A program made the position numbers and the translations under genes. Of a stretch of 64,000 bases of DNA, positions 33,076-61,782 are shown in pieces; the stretch's first letter is position 1; every line of letters begins with the position of its first letter. The notes under the pieces are model-generated. The model had not been told where the DNA came from. It worked only from the letters and a program-made list of their open reading frames with translations, and made no database searches. Source of the DNA: a virus; IMG/VR virus record IMGVR_UViG_3300045911_000143, positions 1 to 64,000 of that record. The stretch is one strand, 5' to 3'.

Positions 33076-33275
33076 ATGAATAAGAATTTTCAAGTCTATT
33101 TATGGGGTGTTACCAAAAATTTCCTAGGCCGAAAAAATTTTCTGGGAAAAATTTTTTGAGGTTTGAAATTTCAAAAATATTCGAAAAATGGCTGTGGAAA
33201 TATCGGCAAACTTGTTTTTAAGATTCAGGAATGTGGTAATACCGTGATATAATATTGTAAGAGGTTTAACAAAAT

Positions 33276-33365
33276 TTGTAAGGAATATTGTAAGGAATAT
33301 TGTAAGGAATATTGTAAGGAATATTGTAAGGAATATTGTAAGGAATATTGTAAGGAATATTGTAA
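33276..33365. repeat. Tandem array 7 x TTGTAAGGAATA flanked by TTTAACAAAATTTGTAA direct repeats
   Basis: Seven perfect 12-mers counted directly in a non-coding AT-rich region. Confidence 0.95.
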
Positions 33366-33542
33366 AAAGGTTTTAACAAAATTTGTAATTTATATTGTTT
33401 TCGGTCGAGCAACCCCCATACCCTCTATTTTATCACGAAAAAAAAGTAAGTCAATATTTTCCCAAACTTGTTTTTTGCTTTTACGATTGTACTACATAGT
33501 ATCCCCTACAGTATAACATAGCGTTATACTGTAGATCAAGCC

Positions 33543-34684: not shown

Positions 34685-34950
34685 TGGTCATATCTCCACT
34701 TGGTGAAAGCATTATACTACAGCGGATGGTACGAGTCAAGAAAAATATTCTATTGCATTGTATTCCATTCTATGATAAAATGGGATGGTAGGACGGGGAT
34801 GGTGACAATATCCCCCTGTACCACACTTCCACTCCAATCTCCAAGATTGGAGAATCGCAGTCTGCAACACTGGAGGACAATGTTGCAGACTGTAGATTCT
34901 GAATCAGGCACTCGGGGCTGTCAACCCCTGTTCCCTTTCCTTCATTTCGA

Positions 34951-36323: not shown

Positions 36324-36487
36324 AATTTTTTCCTCTTGGACGAATATTATACCACATGATATGGCAGTAGTAAAGTCAAATATTTTGTGCAGTGGAGTAC
36401 CTCCGTCCGACCATCCCATTTTATCATATAATGGAATAGAATGCAAGAAAAAGGCGGTAGAAACCGCCCTTAAATGAATCCGCGATT

Positions 36488-36562: not shown

Positions 36563-36674
36563 TTTAATCGTAATGATCCAGCAAAATCCAGCATCCTGCA
36601 ACGAGGATTGCTGCCACAGTGATCCAGAACATTCGGGAGATTCGATGCATTGGATTCAATCTTGAGTTAAGGGA

Positions 36675-36808
36675 ATGGTGGCGGAAACGTATTAGCGCCT
36701 TATTGATTCTCTTAGCCGGTCATCGACCAAAGGTTTCCGGCGCTAATCGGAAATCCTTTGCTGACCCATCCTAGCCATCCGCCTCAAGTGCGTTAGCAGG
36801 ACCACCAT
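36675..36808 (-). ncRNA. Novel pseudoknotted small RNA, copy 1
   Basis: TTGCAA-N17-TATAAT promoter; 41 nt identical to 41427-41467; closing stem ATGGTGG/CCACCAT. Confidence 0.7.
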
Positions 36809-36861
36809 ATGAAGCATTATACTACCATTGGATCAGGATTGCAAGGACTTTACTATCTGGA

Positions 36862-37086
36862 TTAGTAATCGTCCCCGAAGTATCCATAATCTTCATCGGT
36901 TCCCATCCCAGCAGATGCCAGCGCCCAGCCGTCATCGGAATCATCGCAGTCGATTTCAGGCTCCTCATCAGGGTCTTCATAGGCCAGCATGGGATCGAAA
37001 ACTTCCCGGCAATCCATGCAAGTCCAATTGTCATCGTGCGTTTCCTGAGTGTTGAGGGAACCGCAGGCGGGGCAATGATAGTTCAT
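36862..37086 (-). CDS. Small Zn-ribbon protein with acidic tail
   Basis: CPAC...CMDC; DDGWALASAGMGTDEDYG. Confidence 0.75.
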   Translation of the reverse strand: MNYHCPACGSLNTQETHDDNWTCMDCREVFDPMLAYEDPDEEPEIDCDDSDDGWALASAGMGTDEDYGYFGDDY

Positions 37087-37188
37087 TTGGGGTTCTCCGG
37101 TTGAGGAAAACATTATACTATGTTTGGTTGCAGGGTGCAAGCGATTACCTTGCTTTCCACCCTGCGCCTTCCACGAAAAGCGATTATC

Positions 37189-37865
37189 TTACTGATGCGA
37201 GATTTTTGCAATTCGCATCAAGTAGTTAGCCGCGTTGATGATGTATTCTTCATTCGTGATTGCGCGCTGCCAATACCATTGCTGGCGGGCCACGTATTCC
37301 CCCTTTCTTTCGTAAGGCATACGCTTTTCCCTTGCCTTCTCCCGATAGTGAAGAATACGCTTGGCGAAAACTTCGAGGATTTCAGGATTCATAGTATCAT
37401 GCCTTATACTTTTTCACCAGTCCAGCCAAATTTTCTTCTGCCCCTTCAAGGCTTGTACGTTGCGAGCATGGCCGCCATTTGGTCTTAAAAGTGGGGCAAA
37501 TGGCGGTATCAAAATTGTTGTAACAGAATGTTTCCAGCACAATATGCGAATCATCCTCAAGCCGGACGATTGCATATTTCTTTTCTGCGCTGACCGTTAC
37601 AACCCTGATCGCTTGCACTAACATTCTCCTGATCGATTATGCTGCTATTGTATCAGCCTTCCGCCCCAAGTTCAGCATAGGCAAGACTGATCGCAGCCGA
37701 ATCTGATTCGGTGTAAAAAAGTTCCGGCCACGACTTGTCGGGGTTGCCGTGGCGGTTCCAAATGAATTGGCCCAACCGCAGATGGGTGCCCTTGCGCGCA
37801 CCAACCTTGAAATACTCGTTAATCGTGGCGCTGAGGGTTTCGATGTTGCAGTTCAGGCGATCCAT
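37189..37865 (-). CDS. Three small hypothetical ORFs (37189-37392, 37397-37624, 37653-37865)
   Basis: SD sequences (AGGAG, GGGAG) and promoters; LRLGQ motif in the last ORF. Confidence 0.65.
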
Positions 37866-37930
37866 AGTGTTCTCCCTTGATATGGATTGTATTATATCAC
37901 AAAATGGATACCAGTCAACCCCCTTGATAG

Positions 37931-37966
37931 AAAAAGGGCCGCCAGTTTTTTGGCGGCCCTTTTTTG
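37931..37966. terminator. Bidirectional intrinsic terminator
   Basis: aaaaagggccgcca-gtttt-ttggcggccctttttt. Confidence 0.85.
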
Positions 37967-38206
37967 TCAGATCAGCCCTTCCCTTTTGGCCTTACTCACA
38001 TATACCGCCGCGCTGGATTTCTTAATCCCAGACGCCACGACAGCATCCACGCGAGCCTTGTTCTCCGCATCGGCGGGGAGGGCCTTCAGAATCGCAACTG
38101 CGCGGTCATATGCGGTTTCGGCCAACTTGGGCCGTCCACGGCCACGCTTGGCTTGGATCACAGGGGCAGTGTTCTCGGGGTTTGTGACTTCGGTGTTATC
38201 ATTCAT
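37967..38206 (-). CDS. AT-hook DNA-binding protein
   Basis: KRGRGRPK motif; paralog of the 46333 C-terminus. Confidence 0.75.
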   Translation of the reverse strand: MNDNTEVTNPENTAPVIQAKRGRGRPKLAETAYDRAVAILKALPADAENKARVDAVVASGIKKSSAAVYVSKAKREGLI

Positions 38207-38535
38207 GTTTCAGTTCCTATTTTGGTGGTGGAGGCTGTATTATACAACGATTAGATTAGACTTTCAAGCACCCCGTTGACGCATTCCAGTGACCGGGGTG
38301 GTGCAGGACCATTTGTTTTCAAGTGAGACTTACTATAGCACGCATCTTCTATCAAATACAAGTATTGTAATGTAAGATATTTCGTGCTAAAATGGGATGG
38401 TGGACGGGGATGGTATAAAAGAGAAAAAGGCGGGTGCCCTAGGACACCCGCCTTGTCTTGTCACCAGCCACCACGGCTGGTTTCTCGCTTCGCCCTCTCA
38501 AGGTGTAACTATTATCTCACAAATGGGGGAGGGTG

Positions 38536-39402
38536 TCAACCCTCCCCTTCCCCCGCGTCAGGCTTGCGGTTCAGGATGTAGTCTGCCGCCTTTTGCGCCC
38601 TTGCCGCTGCGGTGGCGAACAAATGCGGATCGCTTCGCAGCGCGCGGGACCATCCGTCAAGGTACGCCGCAGTATTCTCAATCACCTTGGGGGCAATCCC
38701 GGCTTCGGCACTCAGGAAACATGCTGCCAGTTCCGCCACAAGTTCCTCGCGGCTGTATTCGTGGGAACCGAAATAGGAAGGCTGATCGATTTCTTTTCGG
38801 TTCAAGCGAGACTTGTGGCCGGTGCTATGGGCAAGTTCATGGAACAGAGTAGCATAGAAACTTTCCGCAGAATCGAAAGTCTCACGATGCGGTATATTGA
38901 TTTTGTCAATCGTTGGGATGTAACATGCACGCTCCCCGCCGTAGCGGATTTCGGGGCGGTTCGGCATACCATTGACAATGGCCTCACATGCGTCCAGAAC
39001 CGGGACAGCCTCGCGGGCCTCATGGGGCGGAAGTTCGATCCCGTCAACTTGCGCAATGTTGTAAACGAGGAAAAATCTGAAAATGGGGAAGGTTGATTCC
39101 TCGCCACTTTCATCGGTACGCTTCACCCAGTTCCAAAAATAGACCGGAGTATGCGCCTTTTCCTCGCCAGCCTTGATTGTTCCCCCGGCAGCCTTGATCT
39201 GATTGTAGGTCAGCCAGACCGATTCGGGATAACCCTTCATGACTTGTACCATGTTAAGCATGAAGGTGTTGATTCCCCGGTAGGTCCGTCCGCTGATGTT
39301 ACGCGGGGGGTCCGATGCCTTCCACGGCTTCAACCACGGGGCCGTACCATTTTCGATCATCTTAAGAATCTGATCGGTCAGAATCTGATAGACTTTCGAC
39401 AT
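38536..39402 (-). CDS. ardC: ArdC-like antirestriction protein (ssDNA-binding domain plus zincin-like metallopeptidase domain)
   Basis: PWLKPW, YRGIN, WLTYNQ, VYNIAQ, FHELAHSTGH..RLNR, YSREELVAEL. Confidence 0.92.
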   Translation of the reverse strand: MSKVYQILTDQILKMIENGTAPWLKPWKASDPPRNISGRTYRGINTFMLNMVQVMKGYPESVWLTYNQIKAAGGTIKAGEEKAHTPVYFWNWVKRTDESGEESTFPIFRFFLVYNIAQVDGIELPPHEAREAVPVLDACEAIVNGMPNRPEIRYGGERACYIPTIDKINIPHRETFDSAESFYATLFHELAHSTGHKSRLNRKEIDQPSYFGSHEYSREELVAELAACFLSAEAGIAPKVIENTAAYLDGWSRALRSDPHLFATAAARAQKAADYILNRKPDAGEGEG

Positions 39403-39756
39403 AGCGTCGTCTCCGTTGATGGTGAAATCATTATCCGATATTAGCCTTTGGTTGTCAAGTGTCAATCGGCTATTTTTTGATCGTTTAAAGGCTTGACTAT
39501 CAGATTGGATGATGTATAATGCTTTACATGGTTAGGGCGGTAACGACAGCCCCGATCACAGCCCCGAAACGGGAACTTTGGCAACCTAGATTAATTGAGG
39601 GTAGGATGGTTTACCCCCGCGACGGCCCGTAAGAAAAATTGATGGTTGTAAACCAAACGAGCAAAAAATCCAGACCAAAGTTATGGTCTGGATTTTTTAA
39701 TTTACAGCATCCCGTCCGACCATCCCATTTTATCATATAATGGAATAGAATGCAAC

Positions 39757-39785
39757 AAAAAAGGGAGGCTTTTGCCTCCCTTTTG
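39757..39785. terminator. Bidirectional intrinsic terminator
   Basis: aaaaaagggaggc-tttt-gcctccctttt. Confidence 0.8.
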
Positions 39786-39959
39786 AGTTTGTTAGAATCC
39801 TTCCCCGTAAACGAACGCATCCTGATCCGCTGCACGCTCGGCGGCCAACCGATCCAGCCATTCGTGGTAGGCAATGTCGGATTCTAACATTTCAAGTTCT
39901 TCGTCGTTCATGGCTTCCTCCAGTTGGTGAAATCATTATATTACATCAACGCAGTTGAG

Positions 39960-40346
39960 TCAAGCGAAAACTTCGGAAATTTTCTGACGCCATTTTAGTT
40001 TTGCAGATTCTTTCACGAAAGCAATTTGCGTGCCGGACACCCCCATTTTCCAACACTCAACACCATCGTTATTTGCAGGGCCGAGATTGTAACAGGAAAC
40101 CAAGAAACCGGCTTCATGAAGGTGAAGGTCTAAGTATAGGGGGAACCACTGGCGCAGTTTTCTGACTGAAGGTGCGCCATAATACACTGTTCCGGGGTGT
40201 TGTCCCTTTAGTTTGTGGATGCCATCATTATATGGTGATGGATAACTTTCCCCAATGATTTCTCGGATAAGATCAGCCTGTCCGTCCCATTCATCGCAAC
40301 GGAATGGTCCCAAACCTTTCTCGTTTTCAACTCTATAGGCCAGCAT
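39960..40346 (-). CDS. Conserved phage hypothetical protein
   Basis: YRVENEKGLGPF...LRQWF...AGF pattern. Confidence 0.75.
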   Translation of the reverse strand: MLAYRVENEKGLGPFRCDEWDGQADLIREIIGESYPSPYNDGIHKLKGQHPGTVYYGAPSVRKLRQWFPLYLDLHLHEAGFLVSCYNLGPANNDGVECWKMGVSGTQIAFVKESAKLKWRQKISEVFA

Positions 40347-40465
40347 TGTAGTATCATACCATATATTATTTTATTTCTCAAGTGTTGTATTCTATTCCAT
40401 TCTATGATAAAATGGGATGGTCGGACGGGGTTGGTAATAAGTGATTAAAACCTCCCTATATCTTT

Positions 40466-40747
40466 TCACGTTGGGTATTCCAAACGATGCTTTTTCAGTG
40501 CATCGGCACGATCCCATGCACGATAATAACACTCGACCTCACCATCCGCATCATAGACGCAATAGAGGGGGATATAAGAACCCCAATAGGTACCGCTCGG
40601 ATCATATCCGCCACGATCCAATCGAACCTTGCGGCAGTAGAGTTTGGCCGAACGATTGGCGTTGTAGTTGCGCCGACCCAAGGGAGCGCCACGAGAGCAG
40701 TTGACGGGGTTGGCTTTCAGACGTGCGTTAATGTCCATGACCATCAT
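40466..40747 (-). CDS. Conserved hypothetical protein
   Basis: RGAPLGR...VRLDRGGYDPSGTYWG motif. Confidence 0.75.
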   Translation of the reverse strand: MMVMDINARLKANPVNCSRGAPLGRRNYNANRSAKLYCRKVRLDRGGYDPSGTYWGSYIPLYCVYDADGEVECYYRAWDRADALKKHRLEYPT

Positions 40748-40861
40748 TCTACACTGATTGGAATAGAAATCAAGTCTTGTAATGTAATTGATTTCGTGCT
40801 AAAATGGGATGGTGGTCGGTGATAGTGGTGAAGAAGTGAGTTGCCTCACTTCGGTCATACT

Positions 40862-41245
40862 CTAGTCGAGGAAAGAATACAAGGCTTCAACATTCAGCGA
40901 GCGATCATTATAGGCTGCCTCCCTCATCGCATAGAATCGCTCGCTCAATTCTTCGGTACATTTCTCAACATACTTCCACAGGGAAACATTGTAAAGCAAC
41001 AGGGTTAGGGCAACCCCGAAGGTGCGGTGATTCATCGTACCTTCATAGTAGTTGTTATCATTTACCACATTGTAAAGGCCCTCCGGGGCGATGACAAAAT
41101 CAAAGCCGCCGATGTTCTCGACAGTCCATTGACCGCCAGTGTAATCCTCAGAATGGTTCCGCGCAAGATTATACAGGCCATTCTCAGCCACGTGCGGGGG
41201 AAGTAGCGGAAAGATGCGAGCAAGATCATTCCAATTCATTGCCAT
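40862..41245 (-). CDS. ArdB/KlcA-family antirestriction protein
   Basis: DYTGGQW, APEG, NNYYEGTM, FGVALTL, FYAMREAA, C-terminal LYSFLD. Confidence 0.8.
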   Translation of the reverse strand: MAMNWNDLARIFPLLPPHVAENGLYNLARNHSEDYTGGQWTVENIGGFDFVIAPEGLYNVVNDNNYYEGTMNHRTFGVALTLLLYNVSLWKYVEKCTEELSERFYAMREAAYNDRSLNVEALYSFLD

Positions 41246-41355
41246 CAGATTTCTTTCTTTCAGTGTTGGGGTATTATATTCCATTATAGGATGGTTGTCA
41301 AGCGTTTTGGTTAGTCAACCCGCAAACATCCCTTGTCCAGTTCACTTAGGTTGGT

Positions 41356-41467
41356 TGGTGGCGTGGTCTAATCGACATTAACCCTCTTGTTGACACTACG
41401 CAGTCGATATTCGCGTTATACGTCTTATCCTAGCCATCCGCCTCAAGTGCGTTAGCAGGACCACCAT
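41356..41467 (-). ncRNA. Novel pseudoknotted small RNA, copy 2
   Basis: TTGACA-N16-TATAAT promoter; shared 41-nt scaffold; TGGTGG/CCACCA closing stem. Confidence 0.7.
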
Positions 41468-41708
41468 GCAAAACATTATACAGTGTTTTCTTCCGTTGTC
41501 AATAGTGGAGTTATCAGATTGGTGACTTTAAAGATGCATTCCCCCCGTCCTCCTGTCACCATTTTAGCATGGAATGTAATACAATGCAAGTCTTGACAAA
41601 CGATTTTTTTTATGGGAGACTAATCGCAAGGCATCCTCTTGTCACAAAAGATTCATAAGATATTTTTCAAAAAACGCTTGACAGTAACATTTCATTATGT
41701 TACACTAA

Positions 41709-42976: not shown

Positions 42977-43369
42977 TTAGGGGTTATACTGTTCTCCATT
43001 TACCCACCACTCTTGTGTTCCGTCAGAACGGATTACAGCGGGTTGGCCATTGTCGCGGTGACGTACTCCGTTAACCCACCACTCTTGTGTTCCGTCAGAA
43101 CGGATTACAGCGGGTTGGCCATTGTCGCGGTGACGTTCTCCATTAACCCACCACTCTTGTGACCCATCGGGGTGAATTACAGCAGGTTGGTCTCCAAGGC
43201 GGTGCTTTACTCCGTCCTTCCACCAGCCTTGATACCCATTAGTTAGAATTAAAGCCGGTAAATCATCTCCTCGATGCCGAACACCATACTGATTTTGGTA
43301 CTCAGTCCGTATTAGCCTGCCGTCATCATCAAAAGTTTCTAGCCTATTGATCGTCATTATTATCTCCAA
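42977..43369 (-). CDS. HRD-repeat protein
   Basis: HRGDDLPA/HRDNGQPA repeats; near-exact 72-nt internal duplication. Confidence 0.88.
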   Translation of the reverse strand: MEIIMTINRLETFDDDGRLIRTEYQNQYGVRHRGDDLPALILTNGYQGWWKDGVKHRLGDQPAVIHPDGSQEWWVNGERHRDNGQPAVIRSDGTQEWWVNGVRHRDNGQPAVIRSDGTQEWWVNGEQYNP

Positions 43370-44603: not shown

Positions 44604-44991
44604 AGTATGACTTACCTGCTGTATGACTTACGTGCTGGAAAACTTGCGGGTGAACCACATCCCCGCTACCCGGTGGTATTGCCACAAATATTTCCTATCT
44701 ACATCATCGGTGGGTTGTGGCACCCGGTTTGTTTAATGATTTTTGCTATGCTTCCATTATAGCATGTTTTTCAAGATTGTCAAACTGGCTCGCCTTCATC
44801 ATCCACGGTCAGGCGTGTAATATGCCTCAAATCTTCCACACTTACATATTCATATGTATTCATGTCGAGCAATGCTTGCCAATCCCATCGAGATGGATCG
44901 TCATTCTCAGATGAAGTCTGAATCTTAAGTGTGATTACATATTGATCTACACTAAACTGACGACTCATACTATTTTCTCAGTGAGGTTGGA

Positions 44992-45067
44992 TGGTGGAAC
45001 CGGTGGGACTCGAACCCACAACCAATAGATTAAAAGTCTACTGCGCTACCAATTGCGCCACGGTTCC
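44992..45067 (-). tRNA. tRNA-Lys(TTT)
   Basis: GGAACCG/CGGTTCC-A-CCA; TAGA-CTTTTAA-TCTA; GGTTCGAGTCC. Confidence 0.95.
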
Positions 45068-46332: not shown

Positions 46333-46950
46333 TCAAACTCGCGGAATCACGCCCGCCTGCCGTGCGTTGCACAGATAAACGTGGGCACTCGACTTCTTAA
46401 TACCAGCGGCTTCCAGCGCAGAGATAACCGTCTTGGTATCATACTTGTCGAGGCTTCGCATGATCTTAACGGCGCGGTCATATGCGGTTTCGGCCAGTTT
46501 GGGACGACCACGGCCACGCTTGGCTTGGATCACTTCGGGGACGGCCACGATAGGTGCAGCATCTACAGCGGGCGTTGGGGCCTCCACCGTGGTTTCCGGG
46601 GCATCATCGACCGTCACCGTCACTTCCGGCTCAGGCGCGACTTCCACGACCACAGGGGCGGAATAGACAACCGGCACGAGGTCAGCCGGGACTTCCTTCA
46701 CGACGGCGGCAGAAAGAGCCTTAACCCGGCTCGAAACATATGCCTTAACCCTGTTTAGGTCATTCTCACCCTTGAGGACGGCATTGCAGATATACTTGGC
46801 GATCAGATTTGGGTTGTCGCCACCATGAATGTCAAACAGGGACGTAAACAGGGACGCATCTTCACTCGGCATGGCATCCACGAAAGCCGTGGCATCCACG
46901 ACCGAGGTCAGGGGGATATCAAACTTTTCCAGATACGATGTCAGGTTCAT
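46333..46950 (-). CDS. AT-hook-containing protein with Val/Pro/Ala-rich linker
   Basis: C-terminal VIQAKRGRGRPKLAETAYDRAV...GIKKSSA.VY shared with 37967. Confidence 0.8.
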   Translation of the reverse strand: MNLTSYLEKFDIPLTSVVDATAFVDAMPSEDASLFTSLFDIHGGDNPNLIAKYICNAVLKGENDLNRVKAYVSSRVKALSAAVVKEVPADLVPVVYSAPVVVEVAPEPEVTVTVDDAPETTVEAPTPAVDAAPIVAVPEVIQAKRGRGRPKLAETAYDRAVKIMRSLDKYDTKTVISALEAAGIKKSSAHVYLCNARQAGVIPRV

Positions 46951-47174
46951 TTGCTTTCCTTTGTTAGTGCCGGGACCATCCCCGACCATGTGAAGCATTA
47001 TACACCGTTTCAGTTGAATTGCAATATCCCGATGTGTTGTATTTTTACCACAACTCTTGTTGTATTTTTACCACATCGCTTGACAATCTTTACATTACAT
47101 GTTAAAATAGGTTGGTGGTTGAGATGATAACAAATAACCCCAAGCCCATTGTGGCGGGCTTGGGGCGGAAGCCC

Positions 47175-53203: not shown

Positions 53204-53299
53204 TGTTCACTGGTGGGACTCGAACCCACATCGGAAGACTTTGTTCTCCCATGACATAACCTAAACTAAGGTTATCGCTTACCTTTTGCTACAGTGAAC
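53204..53299 (-). tRNA. Atypical tRNA-like element (8-bp acceptor, aberrant anticodon arm, long V arm)
   Basis: GTTCACTG/CAGTGAAC, canonical GTGGG-TTCGAGT-CCCAC T arm, hairpins ATAACCT/AGGTTAT and GGGAGA/TCTTCC. Confidence 0.6.
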
Positions 53300-60897: not shown

Positions 60898-61049
60898 GGA
60901 CAGTCCCCATTTTGATTGAGAGAAATGTAAGCCTGAGATTAAGACTTAACGCAGCAACCTTTCCGGTCATTATCCCACACTTGCAGGTGTAGGTTCTACC
61001 GTTATCCACGCACTCGTGTGCGTATTTGCCATACCTGCTCATTTATTTA

Positions 61050-61782
61050 AAGCGCGCGAGCTTATTGCGCTTGTCACCAATGACACTACTCATGGTTCTG
61101 TCTACCGCTTGCCTTGCGGGCAATAAGAGGACGCTAATCCCCTACGTGCGACTTTCCCACAACAATCTATCACCTTGCGAGTTCTAGACTGGCTTGATTC
61201 AGTTGCCTGTCAAGCATTAAGGTACTTTTCATCATTGGCCGGTGACAACTTTGCTATGTACTTATATACCATTCAAAGTTTTAATACCGCCTGAACTTGC
61301 GTGCCACCGTTGCTTCATAACCTTTTGGGCTACAAAATACAACACAAGTTCGTATCCGTTCATTGGCATTACTAGGATTGTCATTTTCGATCAAGCTGTT
61401 AACTTGACCTATTGACTGGATTACGCACTTGCCTGCCAAGACTCGCACTAAAATCCTACACCTTAGATAGTAAACTATGAAAGTTGCATCTACTAGAGGT
61501 TTGCTGCCTCAACAATTTCAGTTTTACCCTCAATTGCTTTCGTAGCATTCAGTCGTTTACCCCCTCACCCAACTCGGTAAGTGGATACCCCCTCTTTTGG
61601 AGAGGAATACATCCGGTGCTTTCTTGAATAGACCATATTGCTATGGCGAACGGGTTGGCGACCCATCCTTTATGCATATCACTATGCACTATCCTTGCAC
61701 TTAAAGAGTTGCCCCTTTAAGTGTGTCAAGCCAGACCTTTCGGTTTCGTTCCTTTATGGTGGAACTCATCAGTGGCTACCGT
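61050..61782 (-). ncRNA. Large structured ncRNA (GOLLD/ROOL-like)
   Basis: About 730 nt with no credible ORF, many GNRA-capped hairpins on the - strand, TTGACA(61816)-N16-TAAGAT promoter, adjacent to tRNAs. Confidence 0.7.

Follow-up and report, generated by a model that had tools for sequence, protein, structure and literature searches.

Two small elements in a fragment of a giant phage genome probably represent an undescribed family of small structured RNAs. They lie 4659 nucleotides (nt) apart on the minus strand, dispersed and without a tandem array, in a window of 64,000 nt that comprises the first 64 kb of the 78,354-nt IMG/VR virus record IMGVR_UViG_3300045911_000143. The CheckV completeness of this record is 21%, which implies a whole phage genome of roughly 370 kb. 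Both elements start with the same 41 nt and end with the same 8-nt motif, CGCCACCA, which is complementary to their 5′ ends; the sequences in between are unrelated. We tentatively read them as early, stable and modular small RNAs, in which a handle common to both is joined to a variable domain and a helix that bears the CCA end closes the body; we consider this quite possible, if short of probable. On this reading, the giant (jumbo) phage would express two paralogous small RNAs early, both non-coding and organized as tRNA-style transcription units.

Shared 5′ module and promoters

36676-36808, minus strand: copy 1 (133 nt), which begins at the predicted start A and ends with CCACCA
41356-41467, minus strand: copy 2, 112 nt
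36816-36844, minus strand: early sigma-70 promoter of copy 1, TTGCAA, 17-nt spacer, TATAAT
41475-41502, minus strand: early sigma-70 promoter of copy 2, TTGACA, 16-nt spacer, TATAAT, 12/12 match
36769-36801, minus strand: invariant hairpin of copy 1, identical to 41428-41460
41428-41460, minus strand: invariant hairpin of copy 2, identical to 36769-36801

The 41-nt segments at the 5′ ends (36768-36808 and 41427-41467, both on the minus strand) are identical, and none of 100 shuffles gave such a match by chance. They contain the invariant hairpin, which is built of UCCU/AGGA, GCU/GGC and CGC/GCG stems with AA and GAU internal loops and a 7-nt loop, ACUUGAG, and which folds at -11.4 kcal/mol (z -2.0 vs shuffles). 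The original prediction, made from the letters of the window, had described two minus-strand elements with an identical start, the same shared hairpin and a near-consensus sigma-70 promoter before each element, and it was borne out in these points. The first A of each element stands 7 nt past the -10 box. In copy 1, GCTTCAT comes between this box and ATGG, a discriminator style common to other early promoters of the region. More than 20 consensus sigma-70 promoters were found in the region, about one per small early gene. Therefore, the consensus promoters of the two elements are not special.

Neither a pattern with three mismatches nor a covariance model built on the 41-nt module detected a third copy in the 78-kb record. 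In the assembly graphs (Logan), the 41-mer was a separate unitig at ~2x local depth, as for a two-copy repeat, and no variants inside the elements were found in the DNA contigs from four runs of one sample. Just upstream of the identical segment, the promoter spacer and discriminator differ between the copies, and downstream of it the sequences are unrelated. The 41/41 identity between such flanks points to selection or homogenisation on the transcribed segment. With a diverged discriminator only 5 nt upstream, the identity may reflect a partner that recognises the specific sequence, or else homogenisation that still goes on between two interchangeable copies.

The main rival reading, possible although we think it doubtful, is that the pair is a relic of recombination. 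The shared 41 nt and the -10 region would then be a duplicated or converted promoter-proximal cassette with no RNA function of its own, and the hairpin would at most stabilise the 5′ end of the following transcript. Such a cassette would be similar to PeSL, the mobile promoter/stem-loop cassettes that shuffle small early genes, a process documented in T4-type phages (PMC4122927, PMC2839356). As with PeSL, repeated early-promoter motifs occur here among many small variable early genes, and conserved ends enclose unrelated cargo. Many promoter modules of the region are repeated (families D2, D5, D6, D7, D10 and D11); the D9 repeat (93% identity) extends from the -10 box over the 41 nt; and the promoters at 47024 (minus) and 39493 (plus) have the same TATAAT-GCTT..ATGGT start and drive unrelated sequence. 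However, the perfect identity lies exactly over the transcribed part that forms the hairpin, while the adjacent spacer and discriminator have diverged. The complement CGCCACCA also recurs in both copies ~65-85 nt further, and an 8-nt motif cannot be a recombination site. In a PeSL, which lies at a gene boundary, the stem-loop is a terminator and precedes the promoter, whereas the stem-loop here is downstream of the start, belongs to the transcribed part and is not a terminator. In addition, the cargo here is non-coding, with no gene behind it and a short 3′ complement to close the unit. Neither copy is followed by a Shine-Dalgarno sequence and an open reading frame (ORF), unlike most other cassettes of the region.

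The AUG at the predicted transcription start might instead open leaderless mini-genes. The two ORFs, of 21 and 23 codons, are similar in length, share their first 13 residues (MVVLLTHLRRMAR) and have arginine-rich tails. In both copies the AUG is exactly 7 nt past the -10 box, and R-I-S is found near both ends, encoded by AGG-AUU-UCC vs CGA-AUA-UCG (rough chance estimate 0.02-0.05). We nevertheless regard mini-genes as very unlikely. The ATGGT at the start point is general to several promoters here, including ordinary-leader ones, and open frames of ~20 codons are expected by chance. A Shine-Dalgarno sequence is absent at both element starts, whereas it is strong in most neighbouring early genes. 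Not one synonymous difference separates the 13 codons of the two copies, whereas the flanks are saturated, a sign of constraint on the nucleotide sequence. Mini-genes would also leave unexplained the 3′ CGCCACCA and an AAGAG motif, both of which follow the stop codons, and their start codon would be buried in the closing helix.

3′ ends and the link to tRNA genes

36676-36683 (copy 1) and 41356-41363 (copy 2), minus strand: shared 3′ motif CGCCACCA, complementary to nt 2-8
41336-41363, minus strand: 3′ end and trailer of copy 2, CGCCACCA followed by ACCAACCUAAGUGA, which resemble those of the tRNA-Lys gene at 44972-44997

Pairing of the 3′ ends with the 5′ UGGUGG had been predicted, and it was found in both copies as a closing helix between CGCCACCA and nt 2-8, with 7 base pairs (bp) including one G-U and an energy of -10.4 kcal/mol. 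A 5′-end complement of at least 6 nt within 150 nt in both copies was seen in ~2% of dinucleotide shuffles, and CGCCACCA is the sole 8-mer common to both copies beyond the 41-nt segment. Copy 1 ends at 36676; base 36675 is U and could lengthen the closing helix. Both copies have a CCACCA end, and the strongest register pairs the CCA. In an alternative register of CGCCACCA in copy 1, CCGCC is paired and ACCA is single-stranded; such a tRNA-like register with free ACCA has just 5 bp in copy 1 and 4 bp in copy 2. The constant ends of the elements are non-random.

Eight tRNAs were predicted in the record, five of which were also matched by the Rfam tRNA model, and all eight have an encoded CCA end. 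The end of copy 2 is similar to that of one of these genes. Its last six bases and the next 14 agree with the end and trailer of the tRNA-Lys gene (44992-45067) at 17 of 20 positions (CCACCA-N-CCAACCU-N-A-N-UGA; 11 of 14 in the trailer alone), a score that was reached by 0 of 3000 shuffles. The motif GAAAAC(A) is likewise found in the promoter spacer of copy 2 and in that of tRNA-Lys. The tRNA-Lys gene has its own consensus promoter and runs directly into the next gene without a terminator. It looks as if copy 2 occupies a tRNA gene slot, in the order promoter, RNA, CCA and trailer. The trailer of copy 1 differs from that of copy 2 and tRNA-Lys.

The anatomy of the elements and the link to the tRNA-Lys end and trailer can be read directly from the DNA. 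This match is new here, and with it the elements look like tRNA-style transcription units. It makes a discrete, trimmed RNA plausible, and the earlier idea that a CCA-like end might allow tRNA-like processing has thereby gained independent support.

Another tRNA-like gene was seen at 53204-53299 (minus), 12 nt downstream of tRNA-Met. It is 96 nt long and has a normal T-arm and a long insertion; its CCA is not encoded, its anticodon was not determined by the prediction, and it is below the Rfam tRNA gathering score.

Downstream sequence and possible leader function

36445-36470, minus strand: intrinsic terminator of the copy 1 unit, read from the sequence
41273-41301, minus strand: separate, complete promoter of the ArdB/KlcA-type gene, downstream of copy 2

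No terminator was found directly after either copy. The terminator of the copy 1 unit would end the unit if the RNA were uncut at the CCA. When the full 369-nt transcription unit of copy 1 was folded, this terminator was paired, and copy 1 stayed a self-contained domain with its 5′/3′ helix closed. The 230-nt stretch between copy 1 and the terminator folds better than shuffles (z -2.3). The only ORF before the terminator (36564-36650, minus; 28 codons) has a lipoprotein-box-like LVAGC and is without a Shine-Dalgarno sequence.

Each closed domain might alternatively be a cis-acting 5′ leader, which heads a longer early transcript and controls its stability, processing or elongation. The transcript would run ~360 nt to the terminator in copy 1 and would read through into the ArdB-type gene in copy 2. 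The switch would involve CGGAAAC with either UUUCCG in copy 1 and GUGGUC with GACCAC in copy 2. These mutually exclusive helices are of similar strength (-8.0 and -8.1 kcal/mol vs the hairpin and the closing helix). The end of the copy 1 unit at 36445-36470, with no terminator directly past either copy, agrees with a leader. So does the end-joining helix that closes the domain, since a helix joining both ends is typical of leader aptamers. Still, we think this function unlikely because nothing credible to regulate was found: copy 1 is followed by the 28-codon ORF without a ribosome-binding site, and the next gene after copy 2 has a separate full promoter, so that copy 2 is not needed as its leader. 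Moreover, unrelated middles cannot form one ligand-binding aptamer, and no riboswitch or leader family was matched in Rfam.

Variable middles

36728-36760, minus strand: hairpin of the copy 1 variable domain, 12 bp with one bulge, -13.6 kcal/mol, z -4.83, 0/200 shuffles as stable
36739-36747, minus strand: hairpin-loop segment AUUAGCGCC of copy 1, 5′ strand of a long-range or pseudoknot helix
36691-36699, minus strand: segment GGCGCUAAU of copy 1, 3′ strand of the long-range helix, 9 nt before CCACCA
41392-41424, minus strand: weak hairpin of copy 2, GAC/GUC and ACGC/GCGU, with AUCGAC (41403-41408) in its loop
41371-41376, minus strand: segment GUCGAU of copy 2, proposed 3′ pseudoknot strand, 9 nt before CCACCA

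The variable middles showed no significant sequence similarity between the copies (p ~0.3). The original prediction held that they keep the same fold all the same, namely a hairpin whose loop pairs with a segment further downstream. This was partly supported, most clearly in copy 1, in which the hairpin is far better than shuffles (z -4.8) and the loop-to-3′ helix is a perfect 9 bp (p ~0.01; duplex -13.3 kcal/mol). The nested minimum free energy (MFE) fold of copy 1 takes the long-range helix in place of the hairpin, and the two may be alternatives rather than a pseudoknot. Copy 2 gave it less support. The copy 2 hairpin (-4.9 kcal/mol, z +0.69) is not better than shuffles, and its loop-to-3′ helix of 6 bp (-5.9 kcal/mol) alone has p ~0.3. 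A layout of this type, with a hairpin loop pairing downstream, was found in 3.6% of copy 2 shuffles, and GUCGAU can instead fall within a local hairpin, as its loop and 3′ strand, as it does in the centroid fold. When the predicted scaffold was forced, it was 1.8 (copy 1) and 0.5 (copy 2) kcal/mol above the MFE.

The spacing is alike in both copies, with the 3′ strand 9 nt before CCACCA and AAGAG 7-9 nt upstream. This is suggestive of a common layout. As only two sequences are available, it is a likeness of layout and not statistical covariation. Different sequences with the same pairing had been offered as the signature of a functional RNA; with two sequences and a copy 2 hairpin no better than shuffles, that argument was not upheld statistically. 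We treat a common fold of the middles as a working hypothesis.

Searches for known families and relatives

Rfam 15 gave nothing over either locus, at gathering thresholds or at E values up to 10, in agreement with the earlier statement that no known family was recognised. We consider it most improbable that the elements belong to a known class, such as degenerate tRNAs or tmRNAs, Y RNAs (YrlA-type), template RNAs of retrons or DRT systems, type III antitoxin RNAs, or RNA anti-CRISPRs that imitate a repeat of the host. The tRNA-like CCA end and trailer would fit the first of these. There was no match to the tRNA model (RF00005) in the Rfam search, and ARAGORN found nothing with default thresholds or with 75% thresholds and introns. 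Nor was a tmRNA found by ARAGORN in tmRNA mode or by Rfam, and an alanine-started tag frame with a hydrophobic tail was not seen by eye; a match of GCUAAGAG to E. coli tmRNA is at chance level.

For the other classes, the proteins searched for in the 78-kb record (~21% of the genome) were a Ro60/TROVE protein, a reverse transcriptase (RVT_1) and a CCA-adding enzyme, and none was found, which carries little weight with about a fifth of the genome covered; the elements also have no adjacent reverse transcriptase and no Y RNA match in Rfam. A 5′/3′ stem with UGGUCC near the 5′ end faintly recalls Y RNAs, and the copy 1 hairpin followed by CUAAGAGA resembles the type I-F repeat handle CUAAGAAA; we regard both as leads only. 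We know of no CRISPR repeat class that resembles the invariant hairpin. ToxI-like RNAs of type III toxin-antitoxin systems form tandem arrays of ~34-45-nt units just before the gene of an endoRNase toxin, whereas here two dispersed copies were found with no tandem array and no toxin-like neighbour.

An antisense or guide role was rejected, as no complement of at least 12 nt was found elsewhere in the phage record.

Relatives were not found either. A blastn search of both units against 50,697 phage records gave nothing. In IMG/VR, the exact 39-mer had 0 hits and a stem-degenerate pattern had 6 chance hits; a loop-anchored degenerate pattern gave 6 chance hits alone in JGI metagenome contigs; and two hairpin patterns gave 0 hits in the genomes of 185,579 species. 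The covariance model of the 41-nt module, which had been proposed as a search tool, found both copies and no relatives elsewhere: nothing credible was obtained in 20 ArdC-bearing viral loci and the T4 tRNA region, or in three cultured jumbo phages and seven IMG/VR kin. Currently, a single phage population is the only known source of the elements.

The apex of the invariant hairpin resembles two parts of E. coli 16S rRNA (rrsH), 838-854 (helix 26 loop, CUUGAGGCG..UGGCU) and 861-868 (GCUAACGC). The local alignment has a p of ~0.04, obtained post hoc. We did not adopt this likeness, because that part of 16S rRNA is variable and the phage host is not identified.

Comparison with known systems

The closest analogues are the RNAs C and D (species 1 and 2) of phage T4, which are strikingly similar in size and in their tRNA-gene-like setting. 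rnaC is 139 nt and rnaD 119 nt long, compared with 133 and 112 nt here. In both cases, a large phage with T4-type RNA ligases has two small stable RNAs whose function is not established, the present pair being predicted from sequence. The T4 pair stands directly after tRNA-Arg, and copy 2 shares its end and trailer with a tRNA-Lys gene. T4 rnaD runs straight into ...GCGCACC-A, and rnaC has the T-arm-like GGGUUCGAAUCCC; this is a true T-arm, and the present elements have none. The T4 RNAs are adjacent in one tRNA cluster, without a common 5′ module and without promoters of their own, whereas the present pair share 41 nt and lie 4.7 kb apart, each with an early promoter. No sequence similarity to rnaC or rnaD, for which Rfam has no model, was detectable, the hairpin model had no hit in the T4 tRNA region, and the folds differ.

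The elements resemble tRNA, tmRNA and viral tRNA-like structures in their encoded CCA end, 5′/3′ pairing, possible 3′ pseudoknot and tRNA-gene-like trailer. They differ from tRNA and tmRNA in that they are without a cloverleaf, T-loop, anticodon arm and tag reading frame, and the CCA is paired in the most stable register. Another comparison is with RNA anti-CRISPRs (Racrs), the promoter-driven solitary repeat units of phages (PMC10651486). These are likewise small, promoter-driven, structured phage RNAs among counter-defence genes, and they provide a working model for decoy action. Racrs are, however, defined by likeness to a CRISPR repeat of the host.

Genomic setting

40862-41284, minus strand: ArdB/KlcA-type antirestriction ORF (PF03230, E 2.3e-7)
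60930-61352, minus strand: GOLLD RNA (Rfam, 189.5 bits), beside tRNA-Gly, tRNA-Pro and tRNA-Glu

DNA of this phage is present in hot-spring and microbial-mat metagenome runs. The genes of the record include a class Ia ribonucleotide reductase and T4-type RNA ligases 1 and 2. Judged by RNA ligase 1, the nearest cultured kin are jumbo phages of Xanthomonas, Stenotrophomonas and Vibrio (42-49% identity). One of these distant kin, Stenotrophomonas phage RAS14, likewise carries a GOLLD RNA.

The block at 34-48 kb is richer in GC than the rest (42-50% vs ~30%) and is made of small minus-strand genes, most of which are preceded by a consensus sigma-70 promoter of their own and a short leader that carries a strong Shine-Dalgarno sequence. 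It includes an ArdC gene and the ArdB/KlcA-type gene and resembles a region for early host take-over. The ORFs that flank the elements encode a zinc-ribbon protein, an unknown protein and the ArdB-type protein. Relatives of ArdC in the protein collection (P0002-P0005) have 71-85% identity, those in IMG/VR have at most 41%, and none were found in metagenome contigs. The proteins that flank copy 2 had no relatives in IMG/VR.

Other repeats were also observed. At the edge of the GC-rich early block, a 12-nt unit, TAAGGAATATTG, occurs in ~9 tandem copies (33255-33386; family D1), which looks like iterons or a protein-binding array. A dispersed repeat of ~50 nt with GATAAAATGGGATGGTCGGACGG was found at 34753-34808, 36403-36452, 38365-38420, 39712-39761, 40385-40440 and 40777-40832. 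It is promoter-like with a G-rich start and occurs in both orientations, and two of its copies are 98% identical (families D2 and D10). A 71-nt repeat with 90% identity (family D8) links 38091-38161, inside a small minus-strand gene, with 46463-46533. It may mark paralogous small basic proteins, and it is a junction also for other contigs in the source sample. A 130-aa (amino acid) protein with MORN-like repeats contains three 72-nt tandem repeats (42991-43206). Finally, the plus-strand consensus promoter at 39493 (TTGACT-16-TATAAT), which has the same GCTT..ATGGT start, lies between minus-strand genes, and a strong terminator (39759-39784) lies ~240 nt past it. The segment 39493-39790 (plus) is a candidate for a stand-alone or antisense small RNA.

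Proposed mode of action and significance

From the anatomy described above, we infer how the elements might be expressed and processed, with what partner and in what role. Transcription from their own early sigma-70 promoters would start no more than two bases from the first nucleotide, and the pairing of 5′ UGGUGG(U) with 3′ (G)CCACCA would close each body. The host tRNA 3′-end machinery might then trim the transcripts to the CCA, leaving stable RNAs of ~133 and 112 nt. The invariant 33-nt hairpin with its internal loops would be the handle that binds both RNAs to one partner, most likely a protein, and the unrelated, partly pseudoknotted middles would give each RNA a different specificity. 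Since the elements sit among early antirestriction genes (ArdC and ArdB), they would most likely serve as decoys, which mimic or titrate a host factor for host take-over or counter-defence, rather than regulate by base pairing.

Several observations weigh against the reading as early, stable and modular small RNAs. Consensus promoters and repeated promoter modules are found everywhere in the region, which makes duplication by recombination a real alternative. No homologue was found in any collection searched, and covariation evidence was therefore not obtained. The folding energies of the whole elements are only weakly better than those of shuffles (z -2.0 and -1.0), and the middle hairpin of copy 2 does not exceed them. 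The closing helix buries the CCA end, unlike in tRNA. As the terminator of copy 1 is 230 nt downstream, copy 1 could be the 5′ domain of a transcript of ~360 nt. The decoy role is one that we infer solely from the gene neighbourhood.

A more far-reaching proposal is that the pair represents an undescribed modular class of phage small RNAs, in which a protein-binding 5′ hairpin and a CCA end derived from a tRNA gene frame interchangeable pseudoknotted cargo. The CCA end would hijack the tRNA end-processing of the host for stability, and each cargo would decoy a different host defence or RNA-handling factor in the first minutes of infection. We consider the proposal in this full form improbable.

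The roles of small stable RNAs in large phages are still open 50 years after species 1 and 2 of T4 were sequenced, and RNA-based counter-defence such as that by RNA anti-CRISPRs has been recognised only recently. Against this background, the value of the present pair is that of a well-defined and cheaply testable candidate from one metagenomic phage fragment, not that of an established discovery. If the reading is true, a phage would reuse a tRNA gene end as a module for stability or processing, and a constant handle with two cargo domains would provide a tidy system for finding the partner of the handle and the target titrated by each cargo.

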